Shown piece after piece: positions 19,853 through 44,600 of a stretch of 64,000 nt of DNA. This stretch comes from an uncultured Methanomassiliicoccaceae archaeon (GTDB taxonomy: Archaea > Thermoplasmatota > Thermoplasmata > Methanomassiliicoccales > JACIVX01). Where the stretch lies: the NCBI GenBank assembly GCA_964544915.1, contig CAZJDY010000020.1:69532-133531 (forward strand), written 5' to 3'. The position numbers and the translations under genes are program-made. Under the pieces are notes generated by a model, which saw only the letters and a list, made by a program, of their open reading frames with translations, did no database searches and was not told the origin of the DNA. How positions within the stretch are numbered: position 1 is the stretch's first letter; each line of letters opens with the position of its first letter.

Positions 19853-20102
19853 CTAATATTGCGAATAAGGTTGTGCGTATTTAATCCTATTGCCATGCCA
19901 TCTGGATTTGCCCTTTTTGGGACCTCTCCATCTCGGTCCAGGTGATTGCATCCATATGACCTTGCAGATGCTGGACGGATGTACTCTGTAGTGAGTGAAT
20001 GCCAGTTCCGGTGTTGAGGAATCTGGATACTGCGCCGAAAGAATCAAGAGAAAATTCTTATAAAGAGTCATGCGCTAATACCGGTTCCAAGGTAGTATAC
20101 TG

Positions 20103-20708
20103 ATGGTGCGAAACCGTAGACCGCCCCATCACTCGAATGGCAGCGCCTTCGTGAACATTTCTGGCGATTACCGGTACATGAGTGAGGGGCATTACGAGAG
20201 CGTTGAGGCGGAGATACAGGAAATCCCTGTATATCCCCAAGTAAAGGAATCGCTGGACGCCTATGTCGTTCCTCTTTGCATGGAAAGGGCCAAGATGGCC
20301 GGCATCAAGGTTCCCGAGTACTACATCTCGAACGGATACTTCGAGCCTCCGGCCATCGTCTATCCGATAAACCCCTTCATGAGGAAGCACAGCATCGTCT
20401 ACAAAGAGGGGCACGTCAAGACGATTGGCAAGTCGCTGACGAGGAACTACAAGTACCCGATCTGCGTCCAGAAGATCAAGGGAGAGGCTTCGATACGGGA
20501 ATTCAAGTGCATCATGGGAACGAGCTCGACCGAGGAATTCGATCCCATCTCCTCCAAGATCTGGAACCTTTTTCATCTGCCGATATGCAAGGTCAGGGTG
20601 ATTGAGAACGGCGAGACCCTGCTAAGCGCTGTGGAGCCGTTGCCGCTGCACCAGCTCAGACCCAAGGAGCTCAAGCTCCTAAGGAAGGCGAACGAATGGC
20701 AAATATAG
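20103..20708 (+). CDS. RLAN-like protein (RimK-like ATP-grasp N-terminal-associated domain), stand-alone
   Basis: 201 aa. YVVPLCMERAKMAGIKVPEYYI resembles the Y..sLlAEArG..v.P core of RLAN domains. Overlaps the downstream ATP-grasp gene by 13 nt. The start may be ATG 20178. Confidence 0.45.
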   Translation: MVRNRRPPHHSNGSAFVNISGDYRYMSEGHYESVEAEIQEIPVYPQVKESLDAYVVPLCMERAKMAGIKVPEYYISNGYFEPPAIVYPINPFMRKHSIVYKEGHVKTIGKSLTRNYKYPICVQKIKGEASIREFKCIMGTSSTEEFDPISSKIWNLFHLPICKVRVIENGETLLSAVEPLPLHQLRPKELKLLRKANEWQI

Positions 20709-21571
20709 CCTGCTTCGTCGAGCGCTACACCATCAACAAGGCCGAGGAGCTCAACGCCCTCACGAACTTCAAGATCGCGGCCATGAACATGGGACACCAG
20801 TTCGAGTACATGTTCCGGTCGGACATCGGGAAGATACCCGACTTCGATGCGCTCTTCATCCGGTCCACGACGGACCCGATGAACGCATGTTACGTCGCCT
20901 CTAGGATGGCCGAGATGTACGGACTGAGAGTGATAGACGACCCGGACTCGATAATCATCTGCTGCGACAAGATCAACATGTACCTCAGGCTGATGCGTGC
21001 CGGCCTGCCGATCCCCGAAACCAGATTCCTTAGCAAGAGGGATATGGACAGGAAGACCGTGCTGAACCTCTTCGAGGAGCTCGGCTCTCCGATAGTCCTC
21101 AAGGCGCCGTTCAGCAGCTTCTCCGCATACGTCGAGAAAGTGGGCAACATCCACTCGTTCTACGAGACCGCCCGGCGCTACTTCAGGAGGACGAGCGAGA
21201 TCGTCGTGCAGCAGTTCGTGCCGTCCAACTTCGATTGGAGGGTAACGACGCTGAATGGAGAGGTGCTGTTCGTCTGCAAGTACGTCATGCCCCCTCACAG
21301 CTGGAAGATACAGCACAGGGAGAACGGGCACGTGATGTGGGCGAAGATCGAGGCCATGGACCTGAATGATGTGGACCCCAAGCTCATCGAGGTCGGTCTG
21401 GCGGCTTCAAAGGCCGTCGGTGACGGCCTGTACGGAGTGGACATAAAGCAGGTCGATGGACACTATCTTGTCATCGAGGTCAACGACAATCCCAACATCG
21501 ACGCCGGTGGAGAGGACGCGAAGAACCCTGAGGTCTACGAGCGCGTCGTCAGGTACCTGGCCGGTGAATAG
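20696..21571 (+). CDS. RimK-family ATP-grasp ligase
   Basis: 291 aa. VLKAPFSSFS, VVQQFVPSNFDWRVTTLNGEVLF, and GLYGVDIKQVDGHYLVIEVNDNPNID match the ATP-grasp Mg/ATP-binding C-terminal motif. Confidence 0.8.
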   Translation: MANIACFVERYTINKAEELNALTNFKIAAMNMGHQFEYMFRSDIGKIPDFDALFIRSTTDPMNACYVASRMAEMYGLRVIDDPDSIIICCDKINMYLRLMRAGLPIPETRFLSKRDMDRKTVLNLFEELGSPIVLKAPFSSFSAYVEKVGNIHSFYETARRYFRRTSEIVVQQFVPSNFDWRVTTLNGEVLFVCKYVMPPHSWKIQHRENGHVMWAKIEAMDLNDVDPKLIEVGLAASKAVGDGLYGVDIKQVDGHYLVIEVNDNPNIDAGGEDAKNPEVYERVVRYLAGE

Positions 21572-21575
21572 ATTC

Positions 21576-22010
21576 ATGATCAGACCGGCAACCTTGTCGG
21601 ACCTGGATTCGCTCGCGCTTCTTGAGAGACGATCTTTCCCCGAGGATGCCTTCTCCCGCAAAAGGTTGAAGCACCTGATCAGTCGCGCGAAGTCTGTGAC
21701 GTTCGTCTATGATGAGGGTGGGATCCGTGGCTACGTGCTCCTTCTGTTCCGGGACGACACGGACGCAGCTCGCATGTACTCCGTATGCGTGGACAGGCTC
21801 CACAGGAACAAAGGGGTCGGGAAAGCGCTCGTCTGTTCGGCCGAGAAGGTCGCAAAGGAACGGGGATGCGGGCGCATGACCCTCGAGGTGAGGGAGAACA
21901 GCGACGCGGCGGTCCGATTTTATTGCAGACTGGGCTTCTCCTTCGTCGGCAAGCTGACGGATTATTATCATCCGGGCGCGCACGGACTTAGGATGATGAA
22001 ACGCCTCTGA
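21576..22010 (+). CDS. GNAT-family N-acetyltransferase (RimI-like)
   Basis: Start placed at ATG 21576 (MIRPATLSDLD..). Acetyl-CoA motif RNKGVGKALV. An alternative GTG at 21564 overlaps the upstream stop. Confidence 0.8.
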   Translation: MIRPATLSDLDSLALLERRSFPEDAFSRKRLKHLISRAKSVTFVYDEGGIRGYVLLLFRDDTDAARMYSVCVDRLHRNKGVGKALVCSAEKVAKERGCGRMTLEVRENSDAAVRFYCRLGFSFVGKLTDYYHPGAHGLRMMKRL

Positions 22011-24395: not shown

Positions 24396-25262
24396 ATGCA
24401 GATGGAGGCCGACTGCGTCCCATGCCTTCTGGGCAGGGTGCTTTTCGAGACGAATCTGTGCGCCCCAGAGAAGAAGTCCAAGGTGATGAGGGAGTGCATC
24501 AAGGTGCTATCCGAGAAGTACAGTCCCGGCGTGAATTCCGCCGTGACCGCGACCGCGGTGCACCGCAGGGCGTACGACCTGCTCGAGTGCAGGGACCCGT
24601 ACGCCGACCTGAAGAAACGGAGCAATGAGGTCGCCGAGGATATCTTCGGGAAGGCAAAGGATTTCGTCGAGTCCGCGAAGGACCCGCTCGAGGCCGCGTC
24701 GTTGGTGGCGATAGCTGGCAACGTGCTCGACTTCGGCATCGGCTCGGCGCTGGATGATCCGGAGGAGCTCGCGAGCGAGTTCGATTCCCTCGTTGGCCAG
24801 GGGCTCTCGATCAACGATGTTCCCACAATGAGGGAGATACTCGAGAAGGCGGAGAATGTCGTCTACCTCCTCGACAACTGCGGCGAGGTCGTCTTTGACA
24901 AGCTGCTCGTGACGGAATTGAAGTGGTTCGGAGTCAGGGTCGTGGGGGTGGTCAAGGGCGAGCCGATACTCACCGACGCGATCGGGGAGGACGCGCGGTC
25001 TACCGGGATTGATAAGTTGTTCGATGAGGTCCTCACCACGGAATCCTTCGCCGTCGGCATCGATCTGAAGCGTATCGGACAGCGCCTGAAGAAGAAGCTC
25101 AAGGACGCCGATCTCATCGTCTCGAAGGGAATGGCGAATTTCGAATCGTTATCGGACACGGATCTCCGTCCGATCGCCCATCTGCTCAGAGCGAAATGTC
25201 TGCCGGTCGCGAAGGCCATCGGCGCGAAGAAGGAAGACAACGTCGTGAAGGTCTATGAGTGA
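24396..25262 (+). CDS. DUF89 / ARMT1-like damage-control phosphatase family protein
   Basis: 288 aa. N-terminal DCVPCLL and C-terminal KGMANFESL are typical of archaeal DUF89. Confidence 0.7.
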   Translation: MQMEADCVPCLLGRVLFETNLCAPEKKSKVMRECIKVLSEKYSPGVNSAVTATAVHRRAYDLLECRDPYADLKKRSNEVAEDIFGKAKDFVESAKDPLEAASLVAIAGNVLDFGIGSALDDPEELASEFDSLVGQGLSINDVPTMREILEKAENVVYLLDNCGEVVFDKLLVTELKWFGVRVVGVVKGEPILTDAIGEDARSTGIDKLFDEVLTTESFAVGIDLKRIGQRLKKKLKDADLIVSKGMANFESLSDTDLRPIAHLLRAKCLPVAKAIGAKKEDNVVKVYE

Positions 25263-26361
25263 AGAAGGCTTGGACCGAGGGATTGAGGCCATAGACTGGT
25301 TCCGATGCAGACTGTATCGCAAGGAGCGATTCGTTATCGCGACAGGAGTATCGAAGGAGACAACGAACGTCCTGGTGCGGGTCCGAAGCGACAACCTAGA
25401 AGGGTGGGGGGCCGCCGCCCCGAACACCGTCACCGGAGAGACCTCCGAATCGATTGAGCGCTTCCTTTCTAAGGCGAGGGCGCGTCTTATCGGGTTCGAC
25501 CCCCGTGACATTCCGACGGTCCATATTCTGATGGAAGCACTGGCTCGTGCGAATCCTGCGGCAATGGCTGGCGTGGACCTTGCGGTTCACGATATGGTCG
25601 GGAAGATGTACGATGCTCCGGTCTGCGAGCTCTTGGGCCGACAGAAGGAGAGCATCGAGACGTCGATGACGATCGGCATTGCAGACTACGAATCGACGAT
25701 CAGGCGGGTCAGGAGTAGCGTTGAGTCTGGGTTCAAGGTGCTGAAGCTGAAGGTCGGATTGGATGTCGAGGAGGATATCCGGAGGATAAGAGGGATCAGG
25801 GAAGTCGTAGGCGAGAATGTAAGGTTGAGGATCGATTGCAATCAAGGGTATTCCCTCTCAATGGCGAAGCGGGTAGTGAAGGAACTCGAACCGCTTTCCA
25901 TCGAGTTCATCGAGCAGCCTGTCCTCGCTCAGGACTGGGAAGGACTAAGGGAGTTGACGGTCGCGTCATCCATTCCGATCATGGCGGACGAAGCAGTGAA
26001 GACGCCCGAGGACGCCCAAAGGCTTGTGAACGGCGGGTACGCCGACATGCTGAACCTGAAGCTGATGAAGTGCGGTGGTATCTATCCAGCTGTCAGAATC
26101 GCGAAGATATGCGAGGAAGGAGGCGTGCGGATCATGGTCGGTTGCATGGCCGAATGCCAAGCGGCAATAGCTGGCGGACTGCATTTCGCGCTCTCGCAGA
26201 AGATCGTCGATCATGCGGATCTGGACTCCCATTTCTCCTTCCTGAACGATCCGACGAAAGCCCTTGTTTGTGTCGATGGAAAGCTATCCCCGCGAGAATG
26301 TTCGGGCCTGGGCACGAGCGTGGATCTGGTGGCATTGCTCCTTCCTTTCCCTTGGCCGTGA
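25255..26361 (+). CDS. Enolase-superfamily enzyme, dipeptide (L-Ala-D/L-Glu) epimerase-like
   Basis: KLKVG (KxK), RIDCNQGY, FIEQP, MADE and LKLMKCGG motifs of the MR/MLE subgroup. Confidence 0.8.
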   Translation: MSEEGLDRGIEAIDWFRCRLYRKERFVIATGVSKETTNVLVRVRSDNLEGWGAAAPNTVTGETSESIERFLSKARARLIGFDPRDIPTVHILMEALARANPAAMAGVDLAVHDMVGKMYDAPVCELLGRQKESIETSMTIGIADYESTIRRVRSSVESGFKVLKLKVGLDVEEDIRRIRGIREVVGENVRLRIDCNQGYSLSMAKRVVKELEPLSIEFIEQPVLAQDWEGLRELTVASSIPIMADEAVKTPEDAQRLVNGGYADMLNLKLMKCGGIYPAVRIAKICEEGGVRIMVGCMAECQAAIAGGLHFALSQKIVDHADLDSHFSFLNDPTKALVCVDGKLSPRECSGLGTSVDLVALLLPFPWP

Positions 26362-32437: not shown

Positions 32438-33379
32438 TCAGTCAAGGTCTTTCGTCGTCTCGGCAACACTCCAGATGTGAGGATCGGGCTTGTTCAAGGC
32501 GACGTACAGATTGGCGTAAATCCTCGCACTTGCCTCGAGGGTCATAGCGACAAGAGTCTCCCATAATTGTCCTCTGCTGTCACGCAGGAGGCTCGCGACG
32601 GTGGGCATGAGAGACGCGGAGTTCCAGGTGGGGACAGTGAACCCGTAGCGTCTCTTCATGTACCGTTCTCCAATGTTCACCCTCGTTCGCTGCATCATGA
32701 ACTCCCTCAACGTCTCAGGTCCTTTGTTGAGCACGATGGCCGCAGGAGCGTACGCGACGCGATAGCCCCTCCGCTCCATCTCCATTCGAATCCAATCCTC
32801 GTCGGTGTTGATCCCATCAGGGAGGATGATCCTCAGGTTCCTGAAGGCGATGAGCTCGCCGGTCTTCGGGGTGACCAGGGATAGACGGTGGTGCATGTCC
32901 CAGAGGGTCCTTACTGCAGATCCGACGAGTGTGTCAGTGGGATTGACCGGAACCGGGTGCCCCCCTACCATGCCGACCTTCTCCTCTCTAAATGGTTCCA
33001 GGAGCTTCGATAGGGCTCCTTCCGTAAGGCGGTTGTCCGCGTTGACTAGAACGAGGACGTCTCCCTCTGCTTCTTTCATAAACAGGTTGACGGCAACGCA
33101 CTTCCCCTCGCGCCTCTCTTGGACGATGAGGCGTACCCTGCGATCCTTCTGTGCACATTCCTCCACGATTGAGTCGGTGCGGTCCGTGCTGCCGCTCGAG
33201 ACCACGATTACCTCGAGCAGTTCGAAACCGTCTAGTGATTGGGAGGATATCGAGGAGAGGGATTGGAGTATGTTCTTCTCCTCGTTGTGCGCGCACACCC
33301 CTACGGACACGCTCGGCATCTGATTGACCAATTGCCTTGGTTGTACATAATATTGACCTGGCGGGAGTGTCGTGGTCAC
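32438..33379 (-). CDS. Family-2 glycosyltransferase
   Basis: 313 aa. VSVGVCAHNEEKNI, VVSSGSTDRT, and NADN (DxD-like). The GTG start overlaps the upstream stop (GTGA). Confidence 0.8.
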   Translation of the reverse strand: MTTTLPPGQYYVQPRQLVNQMPSVSVGVCAHNEEKNILQSLSSISSQSLDGFELLEVIVVSSGSTDRTDSIVEECAQKDRRVRLIVQERREGKCVAVNLFMKEAEGDVLVLVNADNRLTEGALSKLLEPFREEKVGMVGGHPVPVNPTDTLVGSAVRTLWDMHHRLSLVTPKTGELIAFRNLRIILPDGINTDEDWIRMEMERRGYRVAYAPAAIVLNKGPETLREFMMQRTRVNIGERYMKRRYGFTVPTWNSASLMPTVASLLRDSRGQLWETLVAMTLEASARIYANLYVALNKPDPHIWSVAETTKDLD

Positions 33380-34494
33380 TTGGTCTGAATGTTTGCGCCG
33401 ATAGTATCCCAGCCGGCAGCTATCCCGAACCCTAAGAACGTCGGAAGTATCTGGAAAGCCGGAATCTCGGTAGCTACGATGTAGAAGAGGCTCAGATTAA
33501 TAACGTATCCGCTGAAGGCGGTCCCGATCACCTGCATACCGCGGACAAGGCCATCAGTCCTCTTCCGATCCGAGAGGAATTGGTTGGCGATCACAATATA
33601 GCCCACGGCGAGCAGGAACGATATCACAGTCGGAAATACGATGACGTGGCTCCACTCCTCTCCTGTCCACGTAAGGAACACGAAAGTGGAAAACAGGCCC
33701 AGTATCAGGGCCCCCATGAATCTTCCAAGCATGCTGAGCAAGAAGAAGTTTGTCGCAATCGCAAGTGCCTTTCCCCCGACCCCGCACTGTCTCATTATCG
33801 ATAGCACAACGCGAGAGTCCAACTTTGAGGACCCTCCCCTGCGTTCGCCGAATTCGAACTCGATTTCGGAGACCTTCAGATCTTTTGGCGCAAACTTCAG
33901 TAGGTCAAACAGCGCCTTGAATCCCTGTCTCTCGAAGTGCGAGAATTCCCTGATTATTATTCCCTTCGAGACTTCAGTCTTCCCGCCGAAGAAGCCGCTC
34001 ATCATGTCTCTGCATCGCGGCTTGCCCCTGAGGCCTAGATAGGCAGCGGCCATCTTGTGTGCGCCCCCCGATGAAATCTTTCGGATGGTTGGAAGCTTCC
34101 GCTTGTCTTTCCGGATGCCAACAACGAGATCGTTCCCCCTCAAAATCTCATCCATCACGGGAGCGATGGCCTCGGGTGGGTGCTGAAAGTCCGCATCGAG
34201 GACGACGAAGTACGGGGTCTGGGACATGACAATCCCATCCAATATGCTAGCCGTGAGGCCTCTGTCGGAGGTTTCTCGCTTCACGAGTGTGACATTGGAA
34301 TCTGACCTTGAGTATGAAGTGACCTTCTCAGGCGTTCCATCCGTTGAAGAGTCATCTACGACGAGAACCCTGGAGGATGGATAAAGCCTCCTGAGAGTTT
34401 CCAGCATGGGGACTATGTTCTCCCCCTCGTTGAGAGTGGGTAGAATGATCGTGAAATCCCCATCCACCGAGTGCCAGTGGCTCATGTCTTTCAA
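33376..34494 (-). CDS. Polyprenol-phosphate sugar synthase-like GT2 (DPM1/Ppm1-like) fused to a C-terminal 4-TM domain
   Basis: TIILPTLNEGENI, VVDDSSTDGT, VLDADFQHPP, followed by four hydrophobic helices in the last 140 aa or so. Confidence 0.75.
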   Translation of the reverse strand: MKDMSHWHSVDGDFTIILPTLNEGENIVPMLETLRRLYPSSRVLVVDDSSTDGTPEKVTSYSRSDSNVTLVKRETSDRGLTASILDGIVMSQTPYFVVLDADFQHPPEAIAPVMDEILRGNDLVVGIRKDKRKLPTIRKISSGGAHKMAAAYLGLRGKPRCRDMMSGFFGGKTEVSKGIIIREFSHFERQGFKALFDLLKFAPKDLKVSEIEFEFGERRGGSSKLDSRVVLSIMRQCGVGGKALAIATNFFLLSMLGRFMGALILGLFSTFVFLTWTGEEWSHVIVFPTVISFLLAVGYIVIANQFLSDRKRTDGLVRGMQVIGTAFSGYVINLSLFYIVATEIPAFQILPTFLGFGIAAGWDTIGANIQTK

Positions 34495-34830
34495 ATGATT
34501 ACAACGTCAAATCAATATATATCTTTCTGGAGGAGTTTTAATGGCTGTTAAGTCACGCGATCATTGAAATTCTTTAACGCTTGGTCACGAGAGGTCCTAT
34601 TCTGTCGACGTCCTCCACCTCGACTATTCTTTGATGGGGACAGGCTGATGGTGCGACCGATGTCGATGACCCGTTCGGGCATTTCGAACATGTTCGTACG
34701 ACCCAGGAAGTGCCCGTCGGAGTCATCGAGGACCACTCTGATAGAATCGTGGAGAGAATGATGAATGTGGGACGGGCAGGGTGGGGGGAGAATTTGTCGC
34801 CTAAGTCACATGTCGGTGAGCTTAGACGGA

Positions 34831-36123
34831 CTAGTAGAGTCCGTGGGAGCGACGTCGTATCTCAAGGTGCGCCAAGGAGAGGATGCAGATACCGGCGCTA
34901 CCAACAAGCAAATCGATGGCGATCTGCAGCGGAGTGGCGTTCCATACTTCGATGAGGGCGATTTCTAGTACCGTGAAGAAGGCCAGAATGACAATTAGAG
35001 CGTGGGAGTCAGTGGCTAGCCCATAGTTCATGAACAGGCTAGCCAGGCCGAACATGGTCATGGCCACACCTAGCACGGCAAGGGAAGGGGCGGCTTCGAT
35101 GTAAGCTGCTCCGTAGAGCAGGTTGATGATGAAGCCTGGGATGAGGATGTAAGCAAGAGCCACAATGCCAGAGATGACGAGGGTCCAAATGATGGATTTG
35201 CGCATCAGGGAGTAGGTGTCACGGCCTCGGGCATGTGCGTCCGATATCTTGGGGAACATCACCGCTCCGATGGCCGTTGGCAAGAACAAAATGATCTTGC
35301 CCAGCATAGAGGCGGCCGAATAGATGCCAGCATCCAGGTCGGTGAGAAAGTGCCGTGCCAGGAAAGTATCGATATTGGTCAAGATAGTGAAACAGAGAAC
35401 CGCAGCCGTCACGGGCACTAGAAAGCGTTTCAGTTCTTTGGTGTCGAAACGGCGCCGCTCCCCGTGTAGGATATCTCGGATGGATAGATATGCTATGACC
35501 AGGGCCATGCCGCTGCCCACCACAACGCCTCCGAAGGCACCCGCCACGCCGTAGCCCAAAGCTACGAACAGCACGCCGAAGATGAGCTTGCCCAGCGGCC
35601 CTATAGTATTGGAAACACCCACCATCAGGAAGCGCTGCAACCCCTGCGCTGTGCCAATGCCTATGGGAAATACCATTGAGACGAAGAGGCCGGCGATGAG
35701 GATGATTAGGGCAGAGTCGGAACTGAGATTGAGGAAGGACATCAGGAATGGTATGGCCAGGAAGATGCCCGCTGCCATGACGAGGGCCATTATAACCATG
35801 GAGAATGTGGTGGTGCGGACTAGCCAGGACACTTCGGGGTCCTTTCCTTCCGCGCGCAGCTTGGAGACGTAGCGAACCAGCATCGTGCTCACTGTCTGGG
35901 TAGGGATGGAGACGATGAGGAAGATTGAAAGGATGGCTGTCAGCTCAGAGTATGAGGAAGCGCCCAGGTTCCGTCCCATGAAGATCTGGTAAAGATAGTT
36001 GCATCCGCCCCCGATAACCGTGGCTACGAAAAGCAGGAAAGCCGGTTTGGCGAAGCTGTCCGGGTTTTGGGCGGTGTCGCTCACCGAACCGCCAACATCA
36101 ACGGCAGTATAATAGTTTGCCAT
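34831..36123 (-). CDS. Wzx/MOP-superfamily oligosaccharide flippase
   Basis: 430 aa with about 12 TM segments. N-terminal pattern ..GGGCNYLYQIFMGRNLG..YSEL is typical of polysaccharide-biosynthesis flippases. Confidence 0.75.
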   Translation of the reverse strand: MANYYTAVDVGGSVSDTAQNPDSFAKPAFLLFVATVIGGGCNYLYQIFMGRNLGASSYSELTAILSIFLIVSIPTQTVSTMLVRYVSKLRAEGKDPEVSWLVRTTTFSMVIMALVMAAGIFLAIPFLMSFLNLSSDSALIILIAGLFVSMVFPIGIGTAQGLQRFLMVGVSNTIGPLGKLIFGVLFVALGYGVAGAFGGVVVGSGMALVIAYLSIRDILHGERRRFDTKELKRFLVPVTAAVLCFTILTNIDTFLARHFLTDLDAGIYSAASMLGKIILFLPTAIGAVMFPKISDAHARGRDTYSLMRKSIIWTLVISGIVALAYILIPGFIINLLYGAAYIEAAPSLAVLGVAMTMFGLASLFMNYGLATDSHALIVILAFFTVLEIALIEVWNATPLQIAIDLLVGSAGICILSLAHLEIRRRSHGLY

Positions 36124-36273
36124 TTGTTGTCAAGAAGAAAGGCCTTTGCTAGCCCGAAATGGGAGTGCACGAAGTGTTAATAGGGTCGATTTCCATGCTT
36201 CTTGGAGTCTGTCGGGGGACGGGACGATGAGGATATGCATTGAGGGATAGATTTTGCAGGAGAAGGGAAGAAA

Positions 36274-38676
36274 GTGAAAGGTTTAGATCTCCTACAACTC
36301 TTGTGCCACAGTAAACCGGCCCGCTTCATAAGGGGCAACTTCACAAAGTTTGAGCTTTTGGAGATTGTGTTCATCGTGGCCCTGGGGTTTGTGGCTTTTT
36401 CCTGGGTTGCATCCAACCTCATCGTTGACGGTTTCGATTACGGTTTTTCCTTTTCACCCGACCGTACTCTTCAAAGGGCTTTGCATCTGTGGGATCAGTA
36501 TGGTGGTCTAGGCATGGTGAGCCCTCGTGCCATAGCTGGCACTCTGCCTAACAACCTCTACTATTCTTTCACGCAGGCTCTCGGAGTTGGGCTCCACGCC
36601 GCCCAAACGCTGATTTTCTTCACCATACTCGTGGGTTCGGGCGTCTCCATCTTCCTATTCTATCGCGCACTGGGGCTGGGAGAGAGGTATCGACACGGCG
36701 CGGTGTTTTGCGCCCTTCTGTATATGTTCTCGCCCATATCCTCGACGTTCTTATGGAACCAGTTCGCCTCTAGCTACTATTCATACTGCTTCATTCCGTT
36801 CATAGGAGCTGCGGTCGCCTACGGCATCCGTACTCGCAGGGGTCTCCTCTTCATTCTGTTGGTGGCGTTGACATGGACGGTACTGATCACCTCCTCTTAC
36901 ATGAATCCCGTCAATGCCCTGATGGATTGGCTGCTAATCGGCTCACTCTTGTTGGTTCTGGCGTGGCGGTACAGGAGTAGGGCGAGAGAAGTCGTGAAGT
37001 TCGCTGTCCTACTCGCCGCTTTCTGGCTCCTATTGAATCTAGTGTGGGTGTTGCCCAACGCAGATTACGCGGCCCAAGAGTTCACCAAGGCCGATGTGAG
37101 CGTCATCGGCGTTTCCAACTTGGTCCTGCTCAAGTCCAATTCTGTGCCAATTTGGCAGGCAGCGCTACAGACCGGCTACTGGGGGTTGTATGGAACATAC
37201 ATGGGCGATCACTGGTATTCTTGGTCAGGGTTGGCATCGTCGCCTATCTTCTTCATCGCCTGTCTAATTATCGCTCTAACTGGCCTAGTTGCATTGACGA
37301 TTCGACCAATGAAGGATGCAATCGTCTGGCTGGGTGGGCTGGCTTTGTTTTGTTTAATCATGATCAACGGTTATTATCAGCCGTTCGGCGATGCCCTGGT
37401 GTCGCTCTTCAATCAATTCCCTCAACTCTACGCATTCCGAAGTCTCTTCCAGCGCTTTGGCCCGCTTCTCACCCTCTGCTACTCCCTGTTGCTAGGATAC
37501 GTGATGGGCCATCTAGTCGGCAGATGTGATTTGAGTAAAATAAGATCGAGAGGCTGGAAAGGCGTTCCCATGCGGGGATGGTTGACGATGATATGGATAT
37601 CGCTTGTGTTGATATCCATTTCGGTGGTGGCAGTACCGTACTTCAACGGTCAGATTATCTACGACGGAGGGAAGGTCATCCCCTCGGCTAGGGTTCAAGT
37701 GCCTTCATACTACGCAGAAACGAATAAGTGGCTCAACGCCCAGGAAGGGGATTTCCGTATATTTCCGTTGCCCTACTGTAGAATTGGCTACGCCTCCTTC
37801 AGCTGGAACCATGGCTACTGGGGACTGGATCCGAGCTCATCTATCTTTGACAAGGTGCTCCTTACATCTGAGTATGGTCTTGTCGGCGATTTGCTTGCCG
37901 ACATTGCCGGTCGGATTGCCAACTCCAGTCTTGATTTCAATCTCGGGAAGATGTTGTCGATCCTCAACGTGCGTTATGTCCTTTTGCACGAAGACACGAA
38001 TTGGCAGTTCATTTATGGTCATCCCTGGTGGGTAGCTTCCAAAACCAATTTTACCCAATATCAGGCAGCGATTGAGGCTGGTGGTTTGAAGCCGATCGTC
38101 TCTTACGGCAAGCTGCATCTCTTCGAGAACCCATTCTGGCATGACGTACACTACTACCAGGTGGATACTGTTGTTGCTGTGATAGGTGGATTGCGAGCGG
38201 TGAAGAACCTGACGACCGAACCATGGTTTGATATTTCCCATATGGCATTTGTTGAGGTCGACAGCCTGGCGCAAGTAGGCAGTCTGCCTTTCACCGTGGA
38301 TCGAGTATACGAAAACTATCATCTCCTTGATGAGCCGATACTGGGCGGGTTTGATAACAACAATACCGTCCAGACAGTTGGAAGGGATCTCCCAACTCGA
38401 CATGAACTGCAAATCGATCCTCATCGTCATTTGCTGGTCTTCTCCGAACGCTTCGACAACGGATGGAACATGGTGCAAGGTGGAATCGTGAATGCTCATT
38501 TTGCTGTAAACATGCTATTCAACGGGTGGATGGTGCGTAATGATTCCACCAGCCTGGTTCTTTTGGAGTTCCAGCCTCAGAAAGGCGTGGAGTATTGCAC
38601 AGCATTCTCGATAGGATTCTTGTTACTGGCAACTACCGCCCCCATCCTCTGGGGCAGGTCTAATCGGCGCCCCTAG
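36274..38676 (+). CDS. AftD-like GT-C membrane glycosyltransferase (DUF3367 family), 800 aa
   Basis: The first extracytoplasmic loop DGFDYGFSFSPDRTLQRALHLWDQYGGLGMV matches my recollection of the AftD/DUF3367 signature (..D.....DP..fL.Ra.hlWd...g.G.v). More than 12 TM segments are followed by a C-terminal soluble part of about 300 aa and a terminal TM. GTG start. Confidence 0.6.
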   Translation: MKGLDLLQLLCHSKPARFIRGNFTKFELLEIVFIVALGFVAFSWVASNLIVDGFDYGFSFSPDRTLQRALHLWDQYGGLGMVSPRAIAGTLPNNLYYSFTQALGVGLHAAQTLIFFTILVGSGVSIFLFYRALGLGERYRHGAVFCALLYMFSPISSTFLWNQFASSYYSYCFIPFIGAAVAYGIRTRRGLLFILLVALTWTVLITSSYMNPVNALMDWLLIGSLLLVLAWRYRSRAREVVKFAVLLAAFWLLLNLVWVLPNADYAAQEFTKADVSVIGVSNLVLLKSNSVPIWQAALQTGYWGLYGTYMGDHWYSWSGLASSPIFFIACLIIALTGLVALTIRPMKDAIVWLGGLALFCLIMINGYYQPFGDALVSLFNQFPQLYAFRSLFQRFGPLLTLCYSLLLGYVMGHLVGRCDLSKIRSRGWKGVPMRGWLTMIWISLVLISISVVAVPYFNGQIIYDGGKVIPSARVQVPSYYAETNKWLNAQEGDFRIFPLPYCRIGYASFSWNHGYWGLDPSSSIFDKVLLTSEYGLVGDLLADIAGRIANSSLDFNLGKMLSILNVRYVLLHEDTNWQFIYGHPWWVASKTNFTQYQAAIEAGGLKPIVSYGKLHLFENPFWHDVHYYQVDTVVAVIGGLRAVKNLTTEPWFDISHMAFVEVDSLAQVGSLPFTVDRVYENYHLLDEPILGGFDNNNTVQTVGRDLPTRHELQIDPHRHLLVFSERFDNGWNMVQGGIVNAHFAVNMLFNGWMVRNDSTSLVLLEFQPQKGVEYCTAFSIGFLLLATTAPILWGRSNRRP

Positions 38677-39452
38677 GATTTGGGTGCCTGGAGTGCTCTG
38701 TCATAGTAATGGATGAGTTTGTCCCTATAGAAGATGCCCAATGTGTCCATGAAGATGTGGTAGACATCATTCACTCTGATCCGGCCTCCATTCTCCCGAA
38801 TGAAAAGGACCTTAATTGGCACTTCCGAGATCGTGAAACCGTCGTGTAGCGCGTTGAGAAGCAGCTCCAGGTCGAAGGCGTAGCGTTTCACCACGACCCT
38901 AGGAAACTCCCTCTCCAGTACTTGGCGTTTGAATAGTTTCAGTCCAGGTTGTGTGTCTGACATCTTGACCTGGAACACTGCCCTAATCATCAAATTGTAA
39001 CCGAGGGAGAGGATTCTTCTCTTGAACGGGTAGTTAACGATAGATTCTGGATGCCTTTTTGAGCCGATAACGATGTCAGCATCAGTTCGTAGCATCTCAA
39101 CCAGGAATCTTTCCAGCTGACGGGGATGGAGTTCTAGGTCCGCATCAATGAAGGCGACAAGGTCGCCGTCGGTTTTCTTCCATCCTTCCCTCAGTGCTTT
39201 CCCCTTTCCGCCATTGTCGCGGTATGTGACAAGGACGATCTCTTTGTAGATTTGCGCGGCCCGAGCAATCTCAACCTCAGTGCCATCGGTACTGCCATCG
39301 TCGACAACGATTATCTCAAAGGGCAAGCCAAATTCTCTAAAAGTTGCGATTGCCTCTTCTAGATTGGAGTATATCCTATTGCTTTCGTTGAATGCGGGGA
39401 TGATGACGGATAGCTTTCCCATTTGTTCGACTCTATTCTCCCTCTCCGTCAT
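38673..39452 (-). CDS. Family-2 glycosyltransferase
   Basis: KLSVIIPAFNESNRI, IVVDDGSTDGT, IDADLE. The start is either ATG 39452 or ATG 39422; the track start 39590 is probably too long. Confidence 0.8.
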   Translation of the reverse strand: MTERENRVEQMGKLSVIIPAFNESNRIYSNLEEAIATFREFGLPFEIIVVDDGSTDGTEVEIARAAQIYKEIVLVTYRDNGGKGKALREGWKKTDGDLVAFIDADLELHPRQLERFLVEMLRTDADIVIGSKRHPESIVNYPFKRRILSLGYNLMIRAVFQVKMSDTQPGLKLFKRQVLEREFPRVVVKRYAFDLELLLNALHDGFTISEVPIKVLFIRENGGRIRVNDVYHIFMDTLGIFYRDKLIHYYDRALQAPKS

Positions 39453-39744
39453 ACGTATCCCACTCACTGTGCGTATCCTAAATTCAGTCTGCGATATAAA
39501 CGTTGTTTTAGGTGACAGGAGGTTCTGTTGGCATTTTGGTATTAGAGCATCGTAGCCTCCCCAGTCAATAACCTCAAAATCTGGGATCATTTCGATGCAG
39601 CATCCTGGCTATGATTATGTCAAGGTTTTGGCCATGTAGCATTGTTCCAAAAGGACACGGAAGTGAGTCTACTCATTCTGCAAGTCTAAGTCAAGATGGG
39701 GCATAATTCCATATATGATGTAGGGCCTAACTGGGCTATTTGAC

Positions 39745-40533
39745 ATGACGTCGATTGAAATAGGAGTCATACCCGCCGCAGGAGAAGGCAGAAGATTCGG
39801 CTATCTCGGAAAAATCCTGCCTAAACCATTGATGCCTGTGTATGACAGACCTATAATCCACCTTGTTGTTGACAATATGAAGAGAATCGGAGTGACGAAG
39901 CTTTTTGTTCCTGTCTACTTTCACAAGGAAAAGATCAAACACTACTTTTCGGAATCCAGAGCTTCCATGGATGTGGAGGTAAATCTGATTGAATTGGACA
40001 AACCAACCTCAGGCATAGCAGAGACAATTAGCACCGCAAGAGATTCGATCAAGGAGCCGTTTGCCGTGATTCTTGGAGACGACTTCACTATGGCTAGATC
40101 TTTTGATAACCTCGTTAGGACCTTCTTCAACCAAGACGCAATTGCTTTGGAAGGCGTGGTTGAAGAAAAGAGTCTGGCGGCACTGAGGTCGACTTGCTGC
40201 GTACGAATGGGAGAAAGAAACAAGATACTGGAAATTGAAGAGAAGCCAAATGACCCGAAATCCTCTCTGAGAGGTTGTGGGATTTACTTGTTCAGACCGG
40301 AGATTTTCGATTACGTCGATAGGACTCCGAGACTTCCTCCCCGAAACGAGGTGGAGATTACGAATACGATAGGTTTGGTCGCTGAAGAAGGGAAGGCATT
40401 TGCAGAACTCATAGATGGAGAAAATGTAAATATCAACAACTACGACGACCTGCTTCTTGCGGCCTTGATATCCTTCAAGAATACCCATTCGCGGGGGAAA
40501 ATGAATGAGCTTCTCGAAAGAACCACTCGTTAG
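39745..40533 (+). CDS. Sugar-1-phosphate nucleotidyltransferase
   Basis: GVIPAAGEGRRFG..KPL signature. 262 aa. Confidence 0.8.
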   Translation: MTSIEIGVIPAAGEGRRFGYLGKILPKPLMPVYDRPIIHLVVDNMKRIGVTKLFVPVYFHKEKIKHYFSESRASMDVEVNLIELDKPTSGIAETISTARDSIKEPFAVILGDDFTMARSFDNLVRTFFNQDAIALEGVVEEKSLAALRSTCCVRMGERNKILEIEEKPNDPKSSLRGCGIYLFRPEIFDYVDRTPRLPPRNEVEITNTIGLVAEEGKAFAELIDGENVNINNYDDLLLAALISFKNTHSRGKMNELLERTTR

Positions 40534-41563
40534 TATAATTCTGTTGAACTACAACGGAGAGAAGTTCGCTAGTCTGTGGGAATCTGTATTCAAATCGGAA
40601 TATGGCAACTTCGAGATTATCTTTGTTGATAACGGGTCGAAAGACGGTAGCCTAAGTCTCTTCTTAAATCTGAAAGACAAGAATCCGGGAGTTAGAGTCG
40701 AAATTGTCAGAATCAAAGAGAACATAGGGTACTCCAGAGCCAACAATCGGGGCCTTGAGTTCACTCACGGAGAGTACGTAGTTCTGCTCAGCAATGACAT
40801 TGAAGTTGAAAAAGACTGGCTCAGAAACATGATTGACTTCATGGGCTCGCACAAGGACGTGGCGGTCGCTCAGAGCATGATGTACTCAATATACAATAGG
40901 ACGGAACCAGACCGCATGGGCAATCATATCGATGTACTGGGGTTCAATCATCCTTTCAAACCTTCTGGGAAGGTGGAGGAAGTATTCTACAGCGAAGGTG
41001 CAGTGATGTTCATTAGGAAATTAGTAATAAATGAAGTGGGCGGTCTATTCGATGAGACCTTCTTCATGTTTTTCGAAGATGTTGATTTTTCATGGCGGGT
41101 GAGGCTGAGAGGATACAGGATTTGTGTAGTGCCTTCTTCAATCGTGTATCACGTTAGGGGCGGCACTGTTACTGGCACTGTTATCAAGATGAATCCGACT
41201 TACATCATGACAAATTCTAGGAATCGTCTCATCACTCTTTTCAAGAATTATGATGCTTACAACATGTTTGTGTATGGATCTCTCAGCCTTCTTTCCGAGA
41301 TTGGCGAGTCATTATGGTTAATGGTAAACAATCAAGGAGCACTGGGGCTAGCCTGCCTCAAAGGGGTCCTGGCATTCATAAGAATGACACCGCATCTCCT
41401 CAAGAAAAGAATGTACGTCCAGTCTCTTAGGAAAATTGGTGACGACAGGATTTTGGCTCTTGTGTTTCCCATCGGAGTAGCGGTTAGTAGTCTGATTCGA
41501 ACGAGTCAAGATGCGAAAAGGGAGTTTCAGGAATCTTGTGGCCATATAGGACAGTCGGGATAG
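40505..41563 (+). CDS. Family-2 glycosyltransferase
   Basis: VSIILLNYNG, IFVDNGSKDGS, LLSNDIEV, and FFEDVDFSWR, a typical GT2 (rhamnosyltransferase-like) layout. Confidence 0.85.
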   Translation: MSFSKEPLVSIILLNYNGEKFASLWESVFKSEYGNFEIIFVDNGSKDGSLSLFLNLKDKNPGVRVEIVRIKENIGYSRANNRGLEFTHGEYVVLLSNDIEVEKDWLRNMIDFMGSHKDVAVAQSMMYSIYNRTEPDRMGNHIDVLGFNHPFKPSGKVEEVFYSEGAVMFIRKLVINEVGGLFDETFFMFFEDVDFSWRVRLRGYRICVVPSSIVYHVRGGTVTGTVIKMNPTYIMTNSRNRLITLFKNYDAYNMFVYGSLSLLSEIGESLWLMVNNQGALGLACLKGVLAFIRMTPHLLKKRMYVQSLRKIGDDRILALVFPIGVAVSSLIRTSQDAKREFQESCGHIGQSG

Positions 41564-41604
41564 ATGTTGGTTTGATTGGAATTGTTAGTTTGAGGGATTG
41601 AAGA

Positions 41605-44600
41605 ATGAGGAAGAAGATCATCTGGTATCATCTCCTGGCTCTGATTATCGGTATTATAATTGCCATGGTCTGCATAAGACATCTGATAGCCGAAGACCCC
41701 TCTTTGATTGTGAGCTACCGTGATATCTCCGTCCCTCCAAGAACAGGCATGCTTGCTGATTATTACTTCTTTGCATGGTCCGATCAAGGATCACATCCTA
41801 ACTATGAAACACTTGCCAGGAGCTGGTACAGTTTTCCCATGATCTTCAATGATATCACTTTGTTCTCTAAGATCGACTTCCTTTTCTTGTATACGATTAT
41901 GTTCTTCGTCCCCTATCTGGCGTTTTTCAGTATCTTTCACAAGTACCTCAAGTATGACTGGAAAGTCTCATTCTTATCATCAATAGTTGCTGCAGTCCTC
42001 TACTCACTAAACCCATATTCTGTCATGATATTCTCCCCTCCTTACACATACGTGATATCTTACTCTTTTTTTCCTGCGTTGGTGTACGCATACTTGATGG
42101 TGCTGGAGAAGAACACCCATTTGTCGAGACTTGCGCTAGCCCTGATAATCACATTGGTTGTTACCCCGATTTTGCGGGCCGTTGTGTTCGTTGTAGCGAT
42201 CATGCTTCTGACTTCCCTTTCTGTTCTTTTCATCAAGGGTATTTCGCGAAGATCACTTCGGAACATGGGGCTGAATCTCTGCATTGTCCTCGTTATGGTT
42301 GTTGGTATCAATGCATATTGGCTGTTGCCAGCCATTTCAGCGAGTTTTTCAGCCCCCATACAACCATCTTACACTCTAACATATGAAATGACTCATTTGT
42401 TCTCGACCAGGTATTCATTTGATGATATCCTTTTGCTCAGAGCTTCTTGGTGGCCATATTTGCAGCTAAAGCCGATTATCCCAGTGGAAATCTGGCTGCT
42501 CCTGCTCCTCGTGATCCCGCTCCTTTCACTTTCCTCCTTAATGTTGTGGTACTCGAGGGGCAGAGACGAGAAGCTTCTGCTGTTAACTGGAGTGGGTGTA
42601 TGTCTTGTTGGTTTTTCTTTGTGGAGCGGTCTGAATAACCCAATATCTTCGTTCTCCAAGTTGTATGAGTTGCTACTATTCTCCACCCCATCCTCGATAG
42701 GTTGGATGTTCCGGGTGCCCGAGTATTTCGGTGCGTTAGTCGCCTTTTCATCAACACTTCTAGCTGGCTTAGTCATAGCAAGAATCGGAGATAAATGTCA
42801 GAAATTCAACTCGGGGAATCGATTTTTCACGCCAAAGAGGTTATTCGTTGGACTCTTGGTTCTTCTTTTGGTTTCATCTGGATTGATTGGCTGGCAAAGA
42901 CTGAGTGGAGATCTAGATGGAAATCTTAGGAGCGGGTACCACCTAGCCGAAAGGTCACAATTTGACGTCTCGTCTTTCCAGAGGCCTCTGGTTCTCTTGT
43001 GGAACTATACGGGAGACTTTCAGCCGAATCTTATTGGAAAACCATTCGTTGACCCGCCTAAGGATGTTGCAAAATACCTTGTTCAGACGCTCAGAAATGG
43101 TGATAACAAAGCGCTTGATCTCGTTTGTACGATTATGGGAACAGATTCACTGATAACCAATCTGGAGATTACGAACACAACGCTCGTTTCAATTTGCTAT
43201 CTATCCAATTATGATATCTGGGTCTATCTCTTGAACCCCAGTAATGGAGCATTTCAGATCCGAAGCAACCTAGCATCAGTGCATGAATTTGATAGTGAGT
43301 TGTACGGTTTCATATCAACAATGAATTCCTCTCTTGCTTTGGGAACAGAGTCCGAATTGAAATATTCACACCTAGTTATTAATCCCAATCCAATTTCATT
43401 CATGTCGTCATCTGCCAAGGCTACAACCATTGACCCGTTTCTGTACACAATTCATCATGATCCGTCAAGACTTTGGTCAAGGGCATCGACCGCTGATCCT
43501 CTGCATGGAGAATGGCACGCGTATATAGATCAGTTCAATCTTAGGAACTGGCAGACCGATAATGGTAGAGGCCTAGTCTTTACTTGGGCGAATCCTCAAG
43601 TTCCGACAGATACAATTCCGAGCAACAATTTCTTAATTGAAGGGTGGGACTTCAATAACGACACCGACCTTAAAGCTTGGCAGGAATCGACTCCGAATGA
43701 GCAATTCGGCGCGATTCAAGAACTAACACGGGACCAAGACTCGCTCAGAGTCTCACTATTCAATTCTACATGGGGCTGGAAGACCATAAACTCGCCATCT
43801 ATCTCTGCCCATGTTGGTATCCCTTACAGATTCTCCCTAAATACTAGAGGGACGAATGCCCACTCTGTATATGTAAAAGTAGCTGAGCTCGATGCTGACA
43901 TGAATGAGATTCGAAACGATTCCGTAGGGCTCATTGGGAACGGTACCTTTGGATGGAAGGTCTTCACTGTTGATTTTACACCAAGAAACCCATCTACTGC
44001 TTTTATCAGGTTAGAGTTTTGGCATGGTAACATAGCAGAGGCGATTCCAAATCGAGTTTGGATTGACGACGTGAGGGTTTGGAACATTAGCAGTTATACT
44101 ATACCAGCCGCAATGAGCATGAACTTCGAAGTTGACAGTTCAACGGACTACAGACTATTCTCAAGGTCCTTCATAAACCCTGAGGGTGGAGTTGTCGAGA
44201 TTCAAATCGACAACAGGTCGGTGTCTCTATTCACAAGGGATCAACTCAGCAGATTCGTTTGGCGGGACCTTGGTATCCTTAATCTTTCAGAAGGCAGACA
44301 CACGATTGCACTCCGAAACCTCTATGGCTTGAATGCAGTCAATCAAATTGTAGTCATCCCTGTAGCTGAGTACAGAAAGGAACTTGATAGATATATATCA
44401 GGATTGAAGAACAAAACGCTTCTTTACGTTTTTGAAGGAGAGTCGGAGTTCAATTGGATAAATGGCAGGGTCATTGGCAGTGGCAATCAGCAAGCTAGTA
44501 ATGGCATGGTTCTTCAATTTGATAGCAATGGAAGAGCATGGCAAGAAGTCGATGTCCTCCGAAATGGCACGTACGAGATCTTGCTGAGAGGATCTGGCAA

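Follow-up and report, generated by a model that had tools for sequence, protein, structure and literature searches.

We examined a three-gene unit in a stretch of 64,000 nucleotides from an uncultured Methanomassiliicoccaceae archaeon (the whole of this stretch is referred to here as the window). The unit encodes an RLAN protein, a RimK-type ligase and a GNAT acetyltransferase, and the first-pass annotation had proposed that it is a split form of Ngg, the N-acetylglutaminylglutamine synthetase that feeds the osmolyte NAGGN (N-acetylglutaminylglutamine amide). The features of the unit are as follows.

20058..20065, forward strand: possible archaeal TATA-like box, TTATAAAG, read from the sequence by consensus resemblance only.
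20103..20708, forward strand: gene 1, RLAN protein of 201 aa, stand-alone, from the open reading frame list.
20696..21571, forward strand: gene 2, RimK/LysX-type ATP-grasp amide ligase of 291 aa, from the open reading frame list.
21576..22010, forward strand: gene 3, RimI-like GNAT acetyltransferase of 144 aa, with an ATG start supported by homologues.

The close linkage described in the first-pass annotation could be read directly in the sequence. Genes 1 and 2 overlap by 13 nt, in the sequence ...GAATGGCAAATATAG, and genes 2 and 3 are separated by a gap of 4 nt (TAG-ATTC-ATG). The TATA-like box lies ~38 nt 5' of the start codon of gene 1, and this position, together with the N-terminal VN(L/I)xGxY motif conserved in homologues, fits ATG 20103 as the real start of the gene. 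The GNAT open reading frame was listed as 21456-22010, and it is homologues that back the start at ATG 21576. An alternative in-frame GTG at 21564 would lengthen the GNAT to 148 aa and produce an 8-nt overlap with gene 2, which is the arrangement found in loci L010-L013. The three genes are tightly coupled with either start. Elsewhere around the unit, the window encodes a PRC-barrel protein, a TPR protein, Cdc48, an ARMT1-like protein and an MR_MLE-family protein.

Profile searches bore out all three domain assignments, each above its cutoff. Gene 1, in which the peptide YVVPLCMERAKMAGIKVP quoted earlier is present, matched the Pfam RLAN profile PF14401 with 49 bits (cutoff 25), gene 2 matched RimK PF08443 with 38 bits (cutoff 21), and gene 3 matched Acetyltransf_1 with 66.6 bits (cutoff 20.7).

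As a reference for Ngg we used the authentic asnO-ngg pair from Sinorhizobium meliloti pSymB (L092), in which asnO lies immediately upstream of ngg. The S. meliloti Ngg scored 974.5 bits against TIGR03103, and a Pfam search (E<=1) placed a GNAT domain at residues 158-258 and an ATP-grasp domain at 337-575, with no RLAN. The premise that bacterial Ngg fuses the same three modules was therefore mistaken. The ATP-grasp domain of Ngg also belongs to another family, being cyanophycin-synthetase/GshB-like (cyanophycin synthetase 217 bits, GshAB 142 bits, a partial rimK_fam match of 49 bits) and not RimK/LysX-like. No window protein came near the TIGR03103 cutoff of 569: the GNAT gave a weak match of 26 bits, while the ligase, RLAN and a fused RLAN-RimK protein gave none at E<=10. 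Compared directly with S. meliloti Ngg, the window ligase matched with 26 bits over 46 residues, a generic motif, and RLAN did not match. Ngg is always paired with AsnO, and neither AsnO nor an M42 peptidase was found nearby; the open reading frame list and Pfam bear out the earlier remark that the unit has no AsnO-like gene beside it in the window. The hosts, judged from record titles, include freshwater wetland and peat MAGs. Making an N-acetyl dipeptide through an acetyltransferase and an ATP-grasp ligase is formally the same chemistry as that of Ngg, and this likeness is what the split-Ngg reading has in its favor. By sequence comparison the module is nevertheless not a split Ngg, and we regard that origin as highly improbable. 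An osmolyte role likewise found nothing in its support, with no AsnO-like neighbor and no conserved fourth gene.

We then consider the ligase, for which the NCBIfam scores were 73.7 bits (LysX_arch), 70.7 (rimK_fam), 48.7 (MptN), 33.5 (CofF) and 24.7 (S6-RimK). Membership of the S6-type RimK, LysX, MptN or CofF families was rejected, all of these scores lying far below their cutoffs: the LysX/ArgX model TIGR02144 has a cutoff of 275.6 bits, and the RimK S6 glutamate ligase model NF007764 one of 331. The latter comparison also disposes of the concern, raised in advance, that the ligase might fall among the S6-modifying RimK enzymes. Its best solved relatives are ArgX (3vpb, the top match), RimK and LysX. 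Residues K136, Q172, D180, R182, D249, E261 and N263 are invariant among 27 sequences, and K136, Q172, D249, E261 and N263 align with RimK and ArgX. The ATP lysine, the hinge Gln/Glu and the Asp...Glu-x-Asn metal ligands of an active ATP-grasp enzyme are thus all in place, and from its sequence the ligase is predicted to be catalytically active. In the ligase tree the archaeal sequences form a single clade whose sister group comprises all split bacterial ligases, a topology that fits inter-domain transfer in either direction.

The nature of RLAN was addressed by structure prediction. RLAN homologues (n=141) carry PF14401 and are nearly all stand-alone proteins of about 170-280 aa, and the profile occurs in only 201 clusters (50% identity) among 1.84 billion representative proteins. 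Searches by sequence, with a single sequence or a profile, returned no solved structure at E<=10. The AF2 model (pLDDT 88.8, pTM 0.84) was used as a Foldseek query, and the top 50 matches were all ATP-grasp enzymes, among them ArgX (3vpc), RimK (7qyr, 7qys and 5zk6), LysX and D-alanine-D-alanine ligase (Ddl), with E about 2e-7, probability 1.0 and TMq of 0.49-0.65. The order of secondary-structure elements corresponds one-to-one with that of the ligase module of a fused RLAN-RimK protein. Profile alignment of the N-terminal halves of RLAN and ligase was in register (E 6e-4), and only these halves align, the full-length hhalign comparison giving 3.5% probability. On the modeled structure, then, the fold of RLAN is that of an ATP-grasp enzyme, though the catalytic residues of an active one are missing. 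In the profile alignment Pro88 stands opposite the ATP lysine K136 of the ligase. There is no E-x-N metal motif, and where the ligase strands have GVDxK and IEVN, RLAN has VRV and LLS(A/D)(V/I) on the corresponding strands; residues of the C-terminal half were mapped by secondary-structure order only, without a significant alignment. Conserved Arg, Asn, Ser and Thr residues (R114, N115, R165, S175) appear to map to the vestigial cleft. We infer that RLAN is catalytically inactive, and the model suggests that it is probably a dead ATP-grasp paralogue and partner of the ligase. An ATP-grasp fold in RLAN, without the ATP-binding lysine and the E-x-N motif, is new in this analysis.

The GNAT translation has an intact acetyl-CoA motif, R-N-K-G-V-G. 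Its score against the rimI model TIGR01575 (66.9 bits, cutoff 86.4) places it outside the RimI S18 N-acetyltransferases. Among solved structures it comes nearest to nourseothricin acetyltransferase and to the Ard1/Naa10 protein N-terminal acetyltransferases, and it matches the GNATs found in third position in bacterial loci with phmmer E-values down to about 1e-30.

We collected 89 loci from two domains of life, and RLAN precedes the ligase in every complete one. Recurrence of the same gene order on this scale indicates that the unit did not arise by chance. Co-conservation of all three genes, the lack of which had been named in advance as a refuting sign, holds in bacteria, where a GNAT occupies the third position in 64/64 bacterial-type loci with room for it, and in the closest archaeal relatives of the window, six Methanomassiliicoccales loci out of 20. 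The other 14 lack the GNAT, so the RLAN/ligase pair can work without it. In 42 of the 64 bacterial-type loci the GNAT also carries, as a fusion, a papain-like, C39-like peptidase, in which a Q/C/H/D catalytic set is apparent by eye. Flanking open reading frames of at least 90 aa, plus small ones of 25-130 aa on both sides, were clustered all-against-all across the 89 loci, and no conserved fourth gene, precursor peptide or transporter was found; the clusters consisted only of antisense shadow reading frames and lineage-specific synteny. An anti-phage defence system was also considered and set aside, PADLOC giving no match.

Natural fusions tie the modules together further. RLAN-RimK proteins of 475-585 aa are known (Rosetta-stone fusions), and P0222, a natural GNAT-RLAN-RimK triple fusion of 651 aa, stands alone in its neighborhood. 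The window ligase is 39% identical to the ligase part of P0222 (E 5e-57), and 34-39% identical to the fusions of Pseudomonas, Azospirillum and Legionella over >90% of the ligase length. A tblastn search with RLAN and a search with the ligase picked out the same 11 plasmid records, no more and no fewer, and RLAN thus occurs solely alongside this ligase subfamily. With an RLAN domain, an orthologous ligase moiety, and the two always adjacent or fused, the window unit has the features of an RLAN-coupled ligase system, which was reportedly defined computationally (Pfam PF14401) by Iyer and colleagues in 2009. Judged by these sequence relationships, genes 1 and 2 represent the RLAN-RimK fusion proteins, themselves uncharacterised, in split form. 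The Proteobacterial fusions (P. aeruginosa WP_016253675, Legionella, Azospirillum) share with the window the RLAN domain, the ligase subfamily and the GNAT partner, whereas the window, which comes from an archaeon, encodes RLAN and ligase in two genes with coupled translation, and its GNAT has no papain-like peptidase domain. No GNAT lies beside the Pseudomonas copy, and the Legionella copy is paired with a GCS2 carboxylate-amine ligase and an N-formylglutamate amidohydrolase instead of a GNAT. The modeled fused RLAN-RimK protein had a pTM of 0.60, too low for inter-domain geometry. The module spans Zixibacteria to Methanomassiliicoccales, and RLAN-coupled RimK-like ligases, though rare, have a wide phylogenetic spread.

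Which product these enzymes make is a matter of weighing several readings. The one we favor, tentatively and with slightly less than even confidence, is that of a self-contained module that makes an N-acetylated, glutamate-containing peptide metabolite, with RLAN as the dead partner of the ligase. Gene 2 would be the sole catalytic ligase and would work as characterised RimK-family enzymes do, converting a carboxylate with ATP to an acyl-phosphate that is then coupled to an amino acid, most probably L-glutamate, through its alpha-amino group. To our knowledge, the amine partner used by characterised members of the RimK family (RimK, MptN, CofF, RIMKLA/B, LysX/ArgX) is always glutamate or its homologue alpha-aminoadipate. 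RLAN would be an ancient, degenerate copy of such a ligase, from which the first half of the N-terminal domain has gone, along with the ATP lysine and the metal-binding motif. The residues it conserves best nevertheless seem to surround the vestigial active-site cleft, and it most likely binds the ligase, to which it is covalently joined in the fusions, and adds substrate or product binding or regulation. The GNAT would supply or cap the amino group using acetyl-CoA. Since the ligase would join glutamate and the GNAT would acetylate an amino group, the likely product is a short, N-acetylated, glutamate-containing peptide built from common metabolites. Because the subfamily has no characterised member, substrate and product are read from the habit of the family and from the neighbors only. 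In this way we infer an RLAN:ligase heteromer, glutamate as the nucleophile and a small-molecule product. We lean toward the last on account of the links of RLAN-RimK units in other lineages, by proximity or fusion, to GCS2 and N-formylglutamate amidohydrolase, and of the absence of a conserved target or precursor gene. The best functional analogy may be N-acetylaspartylglutamate (NAAG) synthesis in animals, where NAT8L makes an N-acetyl amino acid and the RimK-family ligases RIMKLA/RIMKLB join it to L-glutamate; the animal enzymes differ in having no known RLAN partner and in not being operon-linked. By this analogy it is plausible that an acetyltransferase and a RimK-type ligase give an N-acetylated acidic peptide by a route closer to that of animal NAAG than to that of Ngg.

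A more doubtful reading, to which we still allow appreciable weight, has a protein or a ribosomally made peptide as the substrate. On this view a carboxylate of the target, at its C-terminus or on a side chain, would receive glutamate or another residue from the ligase, much as S6 does from RimK and LysW from LysX/ArgX. Acetylation of the N-terminus would fall to the GNAT and recruitment of the target to RLAN, and in bacteria the fused papain-like peptidase would remove a leader or shorten the tail. The closest characterised relatives by profile and structure, LysX/ArgX and RimK, are indeed protein-directed; the GNAT, with best matches to rimI and Ard1/Naa10, resembles protein N-terminal acetyltransferases as much as small-molecule ones; and the frequent peptidase fusion of bacterial GNATs suggests a peptide or protein substrate. 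That peptidase (GNAT/peptidase-C39-like, DUF3335, in the proteins linked to split forms) is nevertheless lacking in 21 bacterial loci, and neither the window nor the triple fusion has it. Beside the module there is no conserved target gene in the window or the other loci, and GCS2 and N-formylglutamate amidohydrolase, the partner enzymes found elsewhere, act on small molecules. RimK (S6 glutamate ligase) and RimI (S18 acetyltransferase) belong to the same two superfamilies as genes 2 and 3, and the window ligase and RLAN both have RimK among their best structural matches, yet the window scores are far below the equivalog cutoffs. In bacteria rimK and rimI are not known to form a unit, and bacterial S6 is, as is well established, without an archaeal counterpart. 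LysX/ArgX, the best-scoring characterised family for the ligase, works with the carrier LysW, and a zinc-ribbon protein of ~70 aa with an acidic tail, reminiscent of LysW, lies just upstream of RLAN in 11 loci; a W falls within the last four residues in 5/9 distinct tails (for example ...DWDG and ...DKWE). These proteins did not match the LysW models, and the window lacks the context of LysW, LysZ, LysY, LysJ and LysK. A LysW-like carrier as the general substrate was rejected, the zinc-ribbon protein being confined to those 11 loci and none adjoining the window unit. Also conceivable, and less likely still, is a primer-dependent polymerase of an acidic homopolymer such as poly-alpha-glutamate, in which the chain, while it grows, would stay bound to RLAN and receive an N-terminal cap from the GNAT, to be depolymerised in bacteria by the peptidase, an arrangement like that of cyanophycin synthetase with cyanophycinase. 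Formation of poly-alpha-glutamate by E. coli RimK in vitro is reported (Kino et al. 2011). The four conserved RLAN residues could bind an anionic chain, and the GNAT-peptidase fusion fits a make-and-break system. This proposal is pure analogy, the flanking genes include no storage- or export-related neighbors, and it overlaps with the N-acetylated glutamyl peptide reading rather than excluding it. A bolder formulation, which we hold to be possible but on the unlikely side, is that RLAN is a pseudo-enzyme derived from a duplicated RimK-type ligase and dictates substrate choice, while the trio, as a self-sufficient machine, makes a hitherto undescribed N-acetylated glutamyl peptide or installs a hitherto undescribed peptide tag.

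The module is a conserved, ordinary operon that was correctly recognised in the first-pass annotation, and it is uncharacterised: searches of an open literature library found no paper naming RLAN or PF14401, no experimental study, and nothing specific on DUF3335 or on the combination of RimK, GNAT and C39. Biochemistry can start from three points, namely that the module is not Ngg, that RLAN is a degenerate ATP-grasp protein tied to one ligase subfamily, and that GNAT, RLAN and ligase can occur as a single polypeptide. Discovery of a new N-acetyl peptide or a new protein tag would bring archaeal and bacterial metabolism a further pathway, and RLAN would, if the interpretation is true, also give the ATP-grasp superfamily a case of a pseudo-enzyme subunit. 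The P. aeruginosa protein WP_016253675 is apparently PA1345, which is listed only as hypothetical. Proteins identical to those of the window unit are already present in public MAG records, where they are named by the same domains.

The unit of RLAN, RimK-type ATP-grasp and GNAT genes recognised in the first-pass annotation was confirmed as consecutive plus-strand open reading frames with matching Pfam assignments, laid out as follows:

About 38 nt upstream of 20103, plus strand: candidate archaeal promoter motif TTATAAAG (sequence reading)
20103-20708, plus strand: gene 1, RLAN protein, 201 aa (ORF list; Pfam RLAN 49 bits, cutoff 25)
20696-21571, plus strand: gene 2, RimK ATP-grasp ligase, 291 aa (ORF list; Pfam RimK 38 bits)
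21576-22010, plus strand: gene 3, GNAT, 144 aa (ATG start judged from homologues; Pfam GNAT 66.6 bits)

The upstream motif could be an archaeal promoter. The 13-nt overlap between genes 1 and 2 (ATGGCAAATATAG) and the 4-nt gap between genes 2 and 3 (TAG ATTC ATG) are both present in the sequence as claimed. An alternative in-frame GTG start for gene 3 at 21564 would give 148 aa and an 8-nt overlap, as in the closest relatives. Identical proteins, already named after their RLAN, RimK and GNAT domains, occur in public Methanomassiliicoccales MAGs.

Conservation of the unit was surveyed across 89 loci. Stand-alone RLAN proteins form a well-conserved family, found in Methanomassiliicoccales, Zixibacteria, Ignavibacteria, Calditrichota, Scalindua, Gemmatimonadota, Eisenbacteria, Bipolaricaulota, Dehalococcoidia, Nitrospinota and others. 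Wherever a contig end does not truncate the locus, the RLAN gene is followed directly by the ligase gene, usually with a 13-nt overlap, and a GNAT is the third gene in all 64 bacterial-type loci with room for one. Of these bacterial GNATs, 42 carry a fused peptidase of the papain fold, DUF3335/C39-like (215 bits), 21 are short like that of the window, and one is cut by a contig end. GNAT is present in 6 of the 20 Methanomassiliicoccales loci: the window's six closest relatives (RLAN identity 82-93%) keep the short form, and 14 more distant loci carry RLAN and ligase without it. No conserved fourth gene of any size testable was found on either side of the trio in the 89 loci. The trio is a real, conserved unit. 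Neighbour joining places the 20 archaeal ligases in a single clade whose sister group is the 58 bacterial split-type ligases, with 47-55% identity between the two groups, and since they branch in this way the whole operon likely crossed between the domains once. A 3.7-kb contig from a Methanosarcinaceae MAG (L009) carries a bacterial-type trio with a GNAT-C39 fusion, whose proteins are much nearer those of Zixibacteria (ligase E 1e-154 against locus L001) than those of Methanomassiliicoccales; contamination during binning or a second, recent transfer could explain it. In one GNAT-less Methanomassiliicoccales relative, the gene in third position, after RLAN and ligase (L008:9588-10445), encodes a protein of 285 aa that matches Vps62 weakly (25.7 bits).

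The proposal that the trio is a split Ngg, the same three modules being fused in that enzyme, did not survive comparison with the authentic asnO-ngg pair of S. meliloti pSymB. Ngg from pSymB (595 aa; TIGR03103 at 974.5 bits, cutoff 569) consists of GNAT and ATP-grasp, with no RLAN found by Pfam at E<=1, and its ATP-grasp scores highest against cyanophycin synthetase (217 bits) and GshAB (142 bits), matching the RimK family only partially at 49 bits. By BLASTP, the window ligase shares with Ngg only a 46-residue generic motif (26 bits) and the window RLAN protein has no match. At E<=10, TIGR03103 finds neither of these two window proteins nor a fused RLAN-RimK protein, and the model is absent for the triple fusion P0222 among the matches listed. 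Because authentic Ngg lacks RLAN and has another type of ATP-grasp, and because TIGR03103 is not matched by the ligase or by RLAN, we rejected the split-Ngg reading, and the osmolyte role attached to it finds no support; the general logic of pairing an acetyltransferase with a ligase is still plausible. The window ligase was likewise rejected as an equivalog of S6-RimK, LysX, MptN or CofF.

A closer connection is provided by fused proteins. The RLAN family is small, with 201 clusters at 50% identity in an exhaustive profile search of 1.84 billion representatives, and its longer members include RLAN-RimK fusions of 475-585 aa. In Proteobacteria, RLAN is fused N-terminally to the same ligase subfamily as the window ligase. 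The fusion of P. aeruginosa (529 aa, RLAN at 166 bits) is apparently PA1345, judging from its neighbours aatJQMP and pagP, and a Legionella copy is followed by a GCS2 ligase and an N-formylglutamate amidohydrolase. One homologue (P0240, 975 aa) is an RLAN-RimK-GCS2 fusion, and P0222 (651 aa), which stands alone in its genomic neighbourhood, is a GNAT-RLAN-RimK fusion whose ligase part shares 39% identity with the window ligase (E 5e-57). RLAN and the ligase, used in turn as tblastn queries, returned exactly the same 11 plasmid records. Together, these fusions, the P0222 identity and the shared records show window genes 1 and 2 to be a split RLAN-RimK protein, and the fusion evidence ties the RLAN, ligase and GNAT modules functionally. 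PA1345 is listed in a Cpx-regulon paper only as a hypothetical ATP-binding protein. On the P. aeruginosa "plasmid" pZYPA1927 (32492-45292), the RLAN-RimK gene has no GNAT neighbour and sits in a chromosomal-looking block of aatJQMP, pagP, SDR, aminotransferase and LuxR regulator genes.

The nature of RLAN itself, which sequence methods alone did not detect, emerged from structure prediction. An AlphaFold2 model built from 31 homologues was confident (pLDDT 88.8, pTM 0.84) and gave 310 Foldseek matches in the PDB at E<=0.001, the best 50 of which were without exception ATP-grasp enzymes, with ArgX, RimK, LysX and D-alanine-D-alanine ligase at the head (E ~2e-7, probability 1.0, TMq 0.49-0.65, 9-16% identity). 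The modelled fold is firmly ATP-grasp. Profile alignment placed the N-terminal halves of RLAN and ligase in register (E 6e-4), setting 'LDAYVxPLxxEKAKxAGIPVPEYY' on 'CCDKVNMYxxLxxAGVPIPET', 'PPxIVxPINPF' on 'PLVLKAPxSSFS' and 'ICCQE' on 'IVxQxF', with RLAN Pro88 opposite the ATP-binding Lys136. Helices and strands follow one another in the stand-alone RLAN model as they do, element by element, in the ligase module of a modelled fusion (P0234, pLDDT 82.7), from the last N-domain helix to the C-terminal one and with three elements missing. The ligase invariants are K136, Q172, D180, R182, D249, E261 and N263; by secondary-structure mapping the metal-ligand strands GVDxK and IEVN become VRV and LLS(A/D)(V/I), and RLAN has no E-x-N motif. 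Beyond what the first-pass annotation offered, RLAN is very probably an inactive, degenerate ATP-grasp paralogue, a dead twin of the ligase, with its C-terminal-half residues inferred. Its own invariant residues (N90, P91, S111, T113, R114, N115, R165, S175) appear to cluster round the vestigial cleft, which suggests that a binding function is retained.

The trio belongs, as an archaeal split form, to the uncharacterised systems in which a RimK-like ligase is coupled to RLAN. RimK-type enzymes (RimK, MptN, CofF, RIMKLA/B, LysX/ArgX) couple glutamate or alpha-aminoadipate, through its amino group, to a carboxylate, and by family habit the trio's ligase would do the same. The most economical reading, which we favour tentatively, is that the product is an N-acetylated, glutamate-containing short peptide, because the acetyl-CoA motif of the GNAT is intact, the trio is self-sufficient and also exists as a single-protein fusion, and the same ligase subfamily is elsewhere linked to GCS2 and N-formylglutamate amidohydrolase. 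Its closest functional analogy is animal NAT8L plus RIMKLA rather than Ngg. The main rival, that the trio modifies a protein or ribosomal peptide, seems to us less likely but serious; it draws on the ligase being nearest LysX/ArgX and RimK, on the RimI/Ard1 flavour of the GNAT and on the frequent bacterial fusion of GNAT to a papain-like peptidase. A variant in which the trio makes a capped acidic polymer is improbable.

Eleven loci from Zixibacteria and Ignavibacteria (L001:7750-7959, L047:7659-7874, L061:7663-7878, L069:6077-6289, L072:7660-7905 and six more) have, immediately upstream of RLAN, a gene for a zinc-ribbon protein of ~70 aa (CPxCGS...YVCxDCDxEF) whose long tail is acidic or charged, an architecture reminiscent of the carrier protein LysW. 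LysW models did not match these proteins. Tryptophan occurs in the last four residues of five of nine distinct tails (...DWDG, ...DWDDE, ...DKWE, ...DWDR, ...GWE), and the protein could be a ligase substrate in those lineages. Directly upstream of the trio at L001:3583-7678, four genes encode AdoMet-decarboxylase-like, Acetyltransf_6 (FemAB-like), ATP-grasp_4/LAL-type ligase and Orn/DAP/Arg decarboxylase proteins; the cluster resembles a pathway for a small molecule (polyamine or peptide) and is shared with L047, L054, L069, L072, L074, L084, L085 and L088 and not conserved outside those bacterial loci.

In the window, an enolase-superfamily gene (25255-26361, plus strand) matches best L-Ala-D/L-Glu epimerase at 218 bits and the N-acetyl-D-Glu racemase DgcA at 164 bits, both below cutoffs. 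Among Methanomassiliicoccales loci of sufficient length, it accompanies every GNAT (the window, L007, L013 and L014) and is absent from 10 of 10 that lack one, a clade-confounded pattern that hints weakly at N-acetyl-Glu or X-Glu dipeptide chemistry. Around 38000-48000 of the window, G+C falls markedly, to 44-48% (55-59% elsewhere), and the stretch, with ORFs that are glycosyltransferase-like by eye and one for a 1179-aa protein, is probably a surface-glycosylation island, possibly acquired horizontally.
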